Below are positions 38,805 through 40,175 of a DNA stretch of 64,000 bases, one piece after another; the first letter of the stretch is position 1, and each line of letters opens with the position of its first letter. Source of the DNA: Cyanobacteriota bacterium (GTDB taxonomy: Bacteria; Cyanobacteriota; Vampirovibrionia; JBFMGH01). The notes beneath the pieces were generated by a model that had not been told where the DNA came from, ran no database searches, and saw nothing but the letters and a program-made list of their open reading frames with translations. The stretch lies in NCBI GenBank assembly GCA_040752795.1, contig JBFMGH010000608.1, positions 22,209 through 86,208 of the forward strand, read 5' to 3'. The translations under genes and the position numbers were made by a program.

Positions 38805-40175
38805 ATGACATCTTTTAGCATGAATTTACCATTTTATTCCTATCAGCAACAGACTTCAACAACTGGTTTTTCTGCAGCAGCAGCTTCCGCATCAGGCAAT
38901 GGTGCAGCAGCAGCAGCTTCTGCTAGTTCTGGTGGTACAGGTTTGTTTAATGGATTTGATCAACTGAATAATGTTGCTGGTAATCAGCAACAACAGAACC
39001 CATTAATGCAGTTTATGCAAATGTTTATGCAAATGTTTATGCAAATGATGCAGATGATGATGCAGATGATGGGTATGGGAAATAAGCAGCAACAGGGTCA
39101 ACCTCAAGCTGCTAATGCAAATCCAATGGGTAACCCTAATGCAGCAGCGGCAGCTAATGCACCTGGTGCTGCAGCAAGTGCTTCGGCCGGCCCTAATGGC
39201 GCAACTGCTTCAGCGGCAGCGGCAGCTGGTGGAAACGCAAATGCCCTTGCTGGTATTGATCAAAAAGAATTAGACGCTGTTAAAGGTCAGAATTTATCTG
39301 CTGTAGATAGTAAAGGCTATCCAAAGTATTTGATAGCTGAAGGAAAAGATGGTAAAAAGCATATTTATAAACAGGTAAAAGATGGTAATGGTAAAAGTTA
39401 TAAATCAGTAGTTAAAGTTAAACAGGGTAGTAATAAATTACATGTTAAAGACCCTGAGAAAAACAAGGCGGCAGCAGCGGCAGCGGCAAATTCAGGTTCT
39501 TCAGCAGCTGCAGCATCAGCTTATTCATTCAGCTACAACCCATTAACAGGTCAAATGACATTTTCTGCAGCTAGTGCAGCAGCAGCATCTAGTGGTAGCT
39601 CAGGTCCTATAACTAATCAGGGTGGTGGCAAAACTGGTTCACCTCTTATTTTAGATACAAATGGTGATGGTAAAATTAGTGCTCAACAAGGTAAAGGTGT
39701 TGACATTAATGGTGATGGAAAAGCAGACGGCGCTGCTACCGGTGGTGATAAAATGTTAGCAATGGGCGACATAAATGGTAATGGCAAAATTGATGGTACA
39801 GAAGTTTTCGGTGATCAGACAGTAGATCCATTTACAGGTCAAAAGCTTAATGCTCAAAATGGTTTTGATGCATTGGCCCAGGTTGCTAAGAGTGCTGAGA
39901 AACATACCGGAATCAAATGTGTTGATGAGAATGGTAATGTTGATGTAAATAAACTTAAGCAAGCTTTAGAAATGTCAGGAAAAGGTTCACTTGGTTTTAT
40001 TAGTGGTGATAATACATCACAACTGGAAGCTTTAAATGGTGTTTCATCTATTAATACATCTAACTATACAAACCAGCAGCAAACTGGTGCAGTTCAGCAC
40101 AATCAAATTGGCTCATACACTGATGGAAATGGTAATACTCGTCGTGTAGATGACGTATGGTTCCAGCTCGCATAA
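38805..40175 (+). CDS. M/Q/A-rich low-complexity protein with three EF-hand/TSP3-like Ca-binding loops
   Basis: 456 aa, with no signal peptide. A strong SD (GGAGGGGAGAAGAGT-ATG) precedes it. It contains poly-Ala/Ser tracts, the tract MQFMQMFMQMFMQMMQMMMQMM, and K/G-rich segments. The loops are DTNGDGKISAQQ, DINGDGKADGAA and DINGNGKIDGTE, the last fitting D1-N3-N5-G6-I8-E12 exactly. A perfect terminator follows. Confidence 0.6.
   Translation: MTSFSMNLPFYSYQQQTSTTGFSAAAASASGNGAAAAASASSGGTGLFNGFDQLNNVAGNQQQQNPLMQFMQMFMQMFMQMMQMMMQMMGMGNKQQQGQPQAANANPMGNPNAAAAANAPGAAASASAGPNGATASAAAAAGGNANALAGIDQKELDAVKGQNLSAVDSKGYPKYLIAEGKDGKKHIYKQVKDGNGKSYKSVVKVKQGSNKLHVKDPEKNKAAAAAAANSGSSAAAASAYSFSYNPLTGQMTFSAASAAAASSGSSGPITNQGGGKTGSPLILDTNGDGKISAQQGKGVDINGDGKADGAATGGDKMLAMGDINGNGKIDGTEVFGDQTVDPFTGQKLNAQNGFDALAQVAKSAEKHTGIKCVDENGNVDVNKLKQALEMSGKGSLGFISGDNTSQLEALNGVSSINTSNYTNQQQTGAVQHNQIGSYTDGNGNTRRVDDVWFQLA
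39007..39072 (+). repeat. In-frame 12-nt tandem repeats (ATGCAAATGTTT then ATGCAGATGATG) encoding the MQMF/MQMM tract
   Basis: The sequence reads atgcag-tttatgcaa-atgtttatgcaa-atgtttatgcaa-atgatgcagatgatg-atgcagatgatg. Confidence 0.7.

Follow-up and report, generated by a model that had tools for sequence, protein, structure and literature searches.

At positions 38805..40175 (plus strand) of a 64-kb stretch of DNA from a Cyanobacteriota bacterium (contig JBFMGH010000608.1; the whole stretch is hereafter referred to as the window), a coding sequence that starts with ATG specifies a protein of 456 residues, followed by a stop codon. An initial annotation, made from the DNA letters alone, described this open reading frame (ORF) as encoding a protein with Ala/Ser tracts, a Met/Gln tract and three calcium-binding loops, for which no homologue came to mind. 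The reading frame and both kinds of tract are as described. However, a protein search with the 456-residue sequence returned 88 homologues (best E-value 1e-178), recorded under the source names "Cyanobacteriota bacterium" and "Candidatus Gastranaerophilales", out of more than 100 relatives in all, and the last 177 residues belong to the self-processing module (SPM) family of the RTX proteins FrpC and ApxIVA. The protein thus has clear homology to a known family, one of RTX proteins. An exact-sequence look-up did not find the window protein itself on record.

SPMs have been characterized in FrpC and ApxIVA, in which the module cleaves the Asp414–Pro415 bond on meeting calcium and the resulting Asp anhydride leads to an isopeptide bond with a lysine (PMC7078468). 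They are unfolded at cytosolic Ca2+ concentrations, and extracellular Ca2+ induces their cooperative folding around EF-hand-like sites. In the published view, the SPM is exclusive to a subset of large RTX proteins and acts through an Asp–Pro bond (PMC7078468). The module itself is already known; what is new here is its occurrence outside RTX proteins, as the terminal cassette of a paralogous family in Melainabacteria, with Ser in place of Asp. The Melainabacteria are the non-photosynthetic sister lineage of Cyanobacteria and provide a new setting for the SPM.

The identification of residues 280 to 456 (177 residues; 39642..40172, plus strand) as an SPM homologue is secure. The Pfam family PF26745:SPM, which also marks fragments of Neisseria meningitidis FrpC, is assigned (precomputed matches, E ≤ 1e-5) to a syntenic orthologue, P0001, which is 65% identical to the window protein over 100% of its length, and to most of the 88 homologues; the window protein was assigned through these. 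An AlphaFold2 model built from 87 sequences has predicted local distance difference test (pLDDT) scores of 90–98 over residues 280 to 456. A Foldseek search of the PDB with this model retrieved the nuclear magnetic resonance structures of the FrpC SPM (6SJX and 6SJW; E-values 1e-7 and 2e-7, probability 1.0, target-normalized template modelling score 0.63, identity 27–29%), with the next match at E > 1. Furthermore, hhalign aligned the domain profile with P0229, a 739-residue RTX protein containing HemolysinCabind nonapeptide repeats, at a probability of 99.4% (E-value 2e-21, 40% identity over 167 columns). A profile restricted to the SPM did not recover FrpC from the PDB, and a full-length family profile aligned to FrpC in register at both module ends with E = 0.018, so that the direct sequence link to FrpC is weak and the connection rests on the fold, the Pfam family and the bridging RTX sequences. 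Single-sequence searches of Pfam, NCBIfam and the PDB with the 456-residue protein gave only sub-threshold EF-hand/dockerin or chance matches, and a 66-residue FrpC fragment used as a query returned only short fragments.

A comparison with the FrpC SPM revealed the same fold, an identical length (177 residues; FrpC residues 415 to 591), a start at an invariant proline followed by L-x-L-D-x-(D/N)-G-D-G, and a common C-terminal motif, Q-x-G-S-Y-T-x-x-x-G...D-(V/L). The two modules differ in their setting. In FrpC the module is internal to an RTX protein of >1000 residues, whereas in the Melainabacteria protein it forms the extreme C terminus of a 456-residue chain, with neither an RTX block nor a type I secretion signal after it. 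In addition, Ser279 occupies the position of the anhydride-forming Asp of FrpC. Ser-Pro modules embedded in RTX proteins (P0229, 739 residues; P0227, 2177 residues) share the Ser-Pro junction and the DDVWF C-terminal strand with the window protein; unlike it, they have kept the Trp residues as well as the full set of four EF-hand sites, and HemolysinCabind and HCBP_related repeats follow the module. The literature searched contained no experimental study of these RTX-embedded modules, and the SPM literature searched made no mention of Ser-Pro SPMs. SPMs are also found fused after cell-wall domains, namely Peptidase_M23 (P0226, with a Ser-Pro junction), an NlpC/P60 C40 peptidase (P0331) and LysM (P0249), which hints at a role of SPMs in other phyla in delivering or anchoring passengers that act on peptidoglycan.

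All three D-x-N-G-(D/N)-G-K loops of the initial annotation, of which the third is a canonical EF-hand, lie in the module, and their residues are invariant or nearly so in 87 homologues and hence not a product of chance. They are read here as the calcium sites of a Ca2+-dependent domain, as had been supposed. Loop 1 (D284-T-N-G-D-G-K-I; 39654..39689, plus strand, as are all features of the gene given below) corresponds, from alignment and invariance, to the incomplete EF-hand of FrpC: D284, N286, D288 and G289 match D419, D421, D423 and G424, and D315, which completes the site, matches D456 (site definitions from PMC7078468). Loop 2 (D300-I-N-G-D-G-K-A-D-G-A-A; 39702..39737) falls where FrpC has the dispensable, flexible T430–G450 loop, and is thus an extra candidate site at which Ca2+ may bind. 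Loop 3 (D322-I-N-G-N-G-K-I-D-G-T-E333; 39768..39803) has the canonical 12-residue EF-hand pattern and corresponds to FrpC D462–E474; in both proteins it precedes E-(V/L)-F-G-D, with V334 matching FrpC L475. The following Gly336–Asp337 (39810..39815) matches FrpC G477–D478, the narrow port and transient fifth Ca2+ site. In the C-terminal strand D449-D450-V-W-F (40149..40163), D450 matches D579, which is essential in FrpC. G336 and D450 are invariant, and D337 alternates with Asn in relatives; FrpC tolerates D478N. The alignments thus show conservation of the residues around the FrpC scissile bond (G336, D337 and D450), of Pro280, of the N-terminal Ca2+ site and of the EF-hand loop.

The rest of the module has diverged from FrpC, as far as can be read from an alignment that, in mid-module, rests on relatives rather than on residue-level structural superposition. 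Among the four FrpC sites (D419–G424 with D456; D462–E474; D499–D511; D521–E532), the first two are kept. Site 3 is degenerate (D375-E-N-G-N-V-D, with Lys or Gln at position 12) and has a helix insertion ahead of it, and EF-hand 4 is replaced by S-G-K-G-S-L-G, with the loss of its acidic ligands. The T-shaped Trp451–Trp519 pair of FrpC is also absent: the W451 position is Ala, and the sole Trp of the window protein is W452 in the C-terminal strand. Pfam matches to EF-hand_1/5/6/7 (best 20.9 bits against a cutoff of 25) and Dockerin_1 (12.9 bits against a cutoff of 22.9, E = 0.13) stay below the gathering thresholds. EF-hand and dockerin domains share the D-x-N-G-(D/N)-G-K-I loop pattern, but here it is placed in the mainly β SPM fold, not in helix-loop-helix pairs. 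The sole cysteine of the protein, residue 373 (39921-39923), belongs to a conserved T-G-I-x-C motif in a segment inserted relative to FrpC, and most family members keep it.

Residues 1 to 278 would form the passenger of a two-part exported protein, of which residues 280 to 456 are the SPM-fold domain. The N terminus carries a conserved motif, MT.[FL]S[LM]N.P.[YF].[YF]Q (38805..38864), seen in the N-terminal alignment, which is a candidate non-classical export signal. It is followed by an Ala/Ser-rich low-complexity tract (residues 22 to 43; 38868..38933; pLDDT < 50) and by the conserved motif GLFNGFDQLNNVAG (residues 46 to 59; 38940..38981), which takes the form GLF.GF.QL[ND]..G in about 20 homologues. 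The Met/Gln tract (residues 65 to 92; 38997..39080) is predicted to be an amphipathic helix. Beyond it lie a disordered linker rich in Gln, Asn, Ala and Gly (residues 93 to 149; 39081..39251; pLDDT < 50), a small Lys-rich β domain (residues 150 to 230, KGYPKYLIAEGKDGKKHIYKQ...; 39252..39494; pLDDT > 90) that is conserved in many relatives, and a conserved β-hairpin, SFSYNPLTGQMTFSAASA (residues 238 to 257; 39516..39575; strands 238 to 244 and 251 to 257), which is kept in orthologues and has Ala/Ser tracts on either side. The Lys-rich domain contains 18 of the 19 lysines that precede the junction. Pfam yielded no match to it, and a fold comparison with the PDB yielded none of significance; Tudor/SH3-like fold matches at E-values of 1–3 were rejected as insignificant. 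Overall, the protein consists of 15.6% Ala, 13.2% Gly, 9% Ser, 8.8% Asn, 8.6% Gln and 4.6% Met, with one Cys and one Trp; the C-terminal Ca2+-binding domain is acidic (isoelectric point 4.7).

The Met/Gln tract had been likened to prion-like, condensate-forming domains, a comparison that the model and the alignment do not bear out. AlphaFold2 folds residues 66 to 88 into one α-helix (pLDDT about 80), in which the six Gln residues (69, 72, 76, 80, 83 and 87) fall within an 80-degree arc, forming a single stripe on a Met/Phe surface, and relatives freely replace the Met residues of the helix with Leu, Ile or Val, as an amphipathic helix would allow and in contrast to a disordered domain rich in Gln and Asn. 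A copper-binding Met motif was rejected on account of these replacements. The tract is encoded by two perfect 12-nucleotide tandem arrays, at 39011-39047 (GTTTATGCAAAT, 3.1 copies) and 39045-39071 (ATGATGCAGATG, 2.2 copies), and part of its length would thus be a recent in-frame expansion; the variation in helix length among orthologues likewise suggests in-frame slippage. The QNP-LMQFMQ portion of the helix bears a possible likeness to harpin motifs; a Pfam scan at E ≤ 10 found no harpin family.

Every protein of the Melainabacteria family carries the module at its very C terminus, followed by 0–25 residues. Subfamilies, which include Met/Gln-helix, G-D-G-N-N repeat and RTX-like or DUF3060 types, show no relationship to one another in their N-terminal parts, and each of these variable passengers stops precisely at the junction. 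In some paralogues, a short amphipathic tail extends the C terminus. A scan of species-representative genomes found 61 family loci, most of them in metagenome-assembled genomes labelled Gastranaerophilales, Melainabacteria, Vampirovibrionales, Caenarcanum or "Cyanobacteria bacterium", which frequently contain 3-4 copies each; about one quarter carry other labels, including Gammaproteobacteria, Muribaculaceae and Desulfobacteraceae, all labels being given as recorded. When a profile of the C-terminal domain was compared with 1.84 billion representative proteins, it matched 1860 at E ≤ 1e-3 and 105 at E ≤ 1e-30. One Melainabacteria-type contig (L068:607-9947) encodes two SPM-family proteins (679 and 648 residues), a HemolysinCabind protein and a 988-residue protein within 10 kb, which is the only clustered arrangement seen. 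In a different genome (L003:9088-12805), the SPM paralogue P0043 lies between a Peptidase_M10 gene and a block encoding an M23 peptidase, a 630-residue protein, accD and accA; in the window this block is located at 15582-20713. P0043 thus adjoins a different housekeeping block from that beside the window gene, indicating that genes of the family have been inserted at different housekeeping blocks.

Profile alignments set the register of the junction, so that Gly278-Ser279-Pro280 (39636..39644) corresponds to FrpC Tyr413-Asp414-Pro415. At the position of Ser279 (P1), 83 of the 87 closest relatives have Ser and four have Asp, and the proline follows in 87/87. When 106 representatives were added, the resulting 193 Melainabacteria-centred sequences had Ser (156), Asp (28), Cys (4), Thr (2) or Ala (1), again with an invariant proline. 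Among 87 proteobacterial-type SPMs, collected with an RTX Ser-Pro module as the seed, the counts were Ser 68, Asp 14, Cys 4 and Ile 1. Thus, some 280 SPM junctions combined have Ser in 224, Asp in 42, Cys in 8 and Thr in 2, and never Asn or Gly, in counts that carry no phylogeny correction and in samples that are biased by the queries. Asn and Gly are absent although they are one nucleotide from Asp or AGY-coded Ser, and Cys is commoner than Thr or Ala. Even so, the P1 residues Ser, Asp, Cys and Thr constitute the side-chain nucleophiles rather than the residues that would substitute neutrally for Ser or Asp, and the census suggests that Ser, sometimes Cys, is the commoner natural P1 residue across the SPM family. 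Moreover, Ser-Pro and Asp-Pro paralogues are encoded on the same 542-kb contig, and column 448, a neighbour of D450 in the strand packed onto the junction, is Val in the Ser class and Ala in the Asp class.

These observations bear on what the module does. We put at about even the chance that the window protein is exported and that extracellular Ca2+ causes its C-terminal module to fold and to process the junction, releasing or cross-linking the passenger. The protein would leave the cell by a non-Sec route, and Ca2+-driven folding of the module would then strain the Gly278-Ser279-Pro280 turn, leading to processing of the junction. As Ser cannot form the Asp anhydride of FrpC, the junction would probably react through an N-to-O acyl shift, in which Ser279 attacks the carbonyl of Gly278; in relatives, Cys or Thr would take the place of Ser. 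Attack of water on the resulting ester would set the passenger free, and attack of a lysine amine would cross-link it, so that the passenger would end up either released or attached covalently to the cell surface or a matrix; its own Lys-rich domain is a possible acceptor. The pattern of P1 residues, the coexistence of Ser-Pro and Asp-Pro paralogues, the conservation of G336, D337 and D450, the passengers that end at the junction and the constant terminal position of the module may all be counted in favour of a chemical role for residue 279.

SEA domains (G↓SVVV), Hint/intein domains and pyruvoyl enzymes carry out autoprocessing through an N-to-O/S acyl shift by Ser, Thr or Cys. They would resemble the module in having a Ser, Cys or Thr nucleophile beside a strained peptide bond, often preceded by Gly, and in forming an activated (thio)ester that water or an amine can resolve. 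The likeness is one of working principle: the SPM is unrelated to these systems in sequence and fold, and acyl-shift chemistry is proposed for it by analogy.

Several points weigh against processing of the junction. Cleavage by a Ser-Pro SPM is without experimental precedent, D414A abolishes cleavage of FrpC (PMC7846742), and no general base or oxyanion hole that could serve an N-to-O shift has been described in an SPM. The P1 pattern may also have a structural origin in part, since ST/Asx-Pro turns classically contain Ser, Thr or Asp. A contrast at the preceding P2 position (Gly or Ala before Ser, Tyr before Asp; Fisher p = 5e-5, without phylogeny correction) was not replicated in the proteobacterial-type set and was left unused. 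In addition, the window protein lacks the Trp451–Trp519 pair and does not conserve EF-hand sites 3 and 4 of FrpC, and no export system was identified for the family, six loci of which have no type I secretion genes nearby.

The main alternative, which we rate below an even chance, is that the Ser-Pro SPM is cleavage-dead and stays attached, acting as a Ca2+-dependent C-terminal folding nucleus, export ratchet or surface anchor for variable passengers. The dependence of FrpC on Asp414, the inability of Ser to form a cyclic anhydride and the frequency of Ser, Thr and Asp in turns before proline all favour such a switch without cleavage, as does Gly at P2, which is common here and reduces FrpC cleavage to a minimum (PMC7846742). 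The constant C-terminal location of the module, as in secretion or sorting domains, and the amphipathic tail of some paralogues fit this explanation as well. By contrast, a non-cleaving module does not readily account for the lack of Asn, Gly and nearly all Ala at P1, for the enrichment of Cys there, for the retention of both Asp-Pro and Ser-Pro paralogues by one genome, or for the strict conservation of Pro280 and the surroundings of the scissile bond.

The FrpC SPM binds Ca2+ at about 150 μM, whereas the cytosolic concentration is below 100 nM (PMC7078468), and the need for about 100 μM Ca2+ or more for folding implies that an SPM acts extracellularly. A Ca2+-responsive extracellular, structural or matrix role, part of which had been proposed in the initial annotation, remains plausible. 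The absence of a classical secretion signal was likewise borne out: on inspection, the N terminus has neither the basic n-region nor the hydrophobic core of a Sec-type signal.

The lack of an N-terminal signal peptide would also suit a classical RTX-type substrate of type I secretion, an adhesin or toxin recognized through its C terminus. The acidic C-terminal Ca2+-binding domain and the single Cys also fit such a substrate; some paralogues (P0036, with HemolysinCabind) have RTX-like repeats, and SPMs elsewhere sit in type I-secreted RTX proteins. We nevertheless consider this improbable, because the window protein has no HemolysinCabind match at E-values up to 10, no ABC transporter, HlyD-type or TolC-type genes were found next to six family loci or within those parts of the window that the scan covered, and a type I system is reportedly missing from gut Melainabacteria (PMC3787301). 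The same organisms are reported to be diderm and flagellated. The proposal of the initial annotation, an abundant, prion-like cytoplasmic protein that forms condensates on Ca2+, can draw on the missing signal peptide, the long low-complexity tracts (pLDDT < 50) and the strong Shine–Dalgarno site, but is very improbable given that its Ca2+-binding part is an SPM that folds at about 100 μM Ca2+ or more, that the Met/Gln tract is a conserved amphipathic helix, and that relatives exchange the entire N-terminal region for unrelated passengers while keeping the module.

A broader and more speculative picture, which we think doubtful as it stands, goes further. The Ser-Pro, Cys-Pro and Thr-Pro SPMs would form a second, unrecognized class of calcium-triggered autoprocessing domains that work through a (thio)ester, made by an N-to-O/S acyl shift in place of the Asp anhydride, and this class would be the majority in the sampled sequences. 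In Melainabacteria, the module would serve as a stand-alone C-terminal cassette that autocatalytically releases dozens of different passengers per lineage, or ligates them covalently to the surface or matrix, in a manner resembling sortase-free anchoring, and the Met/Gln-helix protein of the window would be one of its cargoes.

The locus is of value chiefly because it brings to light a Ser/Cys class of SPMs that has escaped study and shows the module in terminal use, outside RTX proteins. If the Ser/Cys modules are active, they would represent a new self-processing chemistry and would add to the tools built on the FrpC module, namely self-excising purification tags and NeissLock ligation. Inactive modules would instead define a calcium-switch domain that was reused for sorting or anchoring. 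In either case, a large group of hypothetical proteins from gut and rumen Melainabacteria would gain a functional assignment.

The signals around the gene agree broadly with the initial annotation. The Shine–Dalgarno-like GGAGGGG (38790..38796, plus strand) is present, with a spacing to the ATG of 8 nucleotides rather than the 7 given before. A terminator-like hairpin with a T-tract (40217..40250, plus strand, from a folding calculation) lies downstream, as had been noted: the hairpin (40217-40240) begins 42 nucleotides past the stop codon and has 10 pairs, with the core CCCTTCCT/AGGAAGGG, a 4-nucleotide loop and a folding energy of −20.9 kcal/mol (z = −2.5), but the T-tract after it, TTACCTTTTA, is weak. 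Intergenic regions of 650 bp and 372 bp border the gene, a layout that, together with the hairpin, fits a single-gene unit. No Rfam element was found near the gene, and the 64-kb window contains no paralogue of the protein. In the upstream intergenic region, a block of about 25 nucleotides at 38270-38297 (TCCTATACCCCATATTAGGTATTT) is common to the window and the family locus L001, and could be a regulatory site; the remainder of the 650-bp 5′ region is poorly conserved between the two.

The next gene (40548..41183, plus strand) encodes a NarL/LuxR-type response regulator with Response_reg and GerE domains, as annotated. The same neighbour is present at L001 and L002 and not at the paralogue loci. 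The 65%-identical orthologue, on a 628-kb contig, has neighbours that match those of the window gene, with an NTP transferase, DUF1015 and a small orphan gene on one side and the response regulator, AIRC and a PP-loop ATPase on the other. As synteny extends only to the close orthologue and to none of the paralogue loci, a functional link to the response regulator was dropped. Just upstream of the SPM gene, and divergent from it, an ORF at 37650-38153 (minus strand) encodes 167 residues rich in Asn and Lys with no Pfam match; L001 has a 147-residue ORF, also without a Pfam match, at the matching position.

The window as a whole is ordinary chromosome, with dnaN-recF-dciA-gyrB, grpE-dnaJ, accA/accD, mraW and murE. 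The gyrB, dciA, recF and dnaN cluster occupies 8114-14730 (minus strand) and the sign of the GC skew switches at about 18-22 kb. The replication origin is probably not far from the window; matches to the DnaA-box consensus are not enriched in it (20 found, 21 expected). Further downstream, a gene at 42721-44634 (minus strand) encodes a 637-residue protein with a type IV prepilin-like N terminus (G↓FSMVE, then a hydrophobic helix) and no Pfam match, which is syntenic in L001 (632 residues), and a type II secretion/type IV pilus (T2SS/T4P) ATPase with T2SSE and MshEN domains is encoded at 50350-52032 (minus strand).

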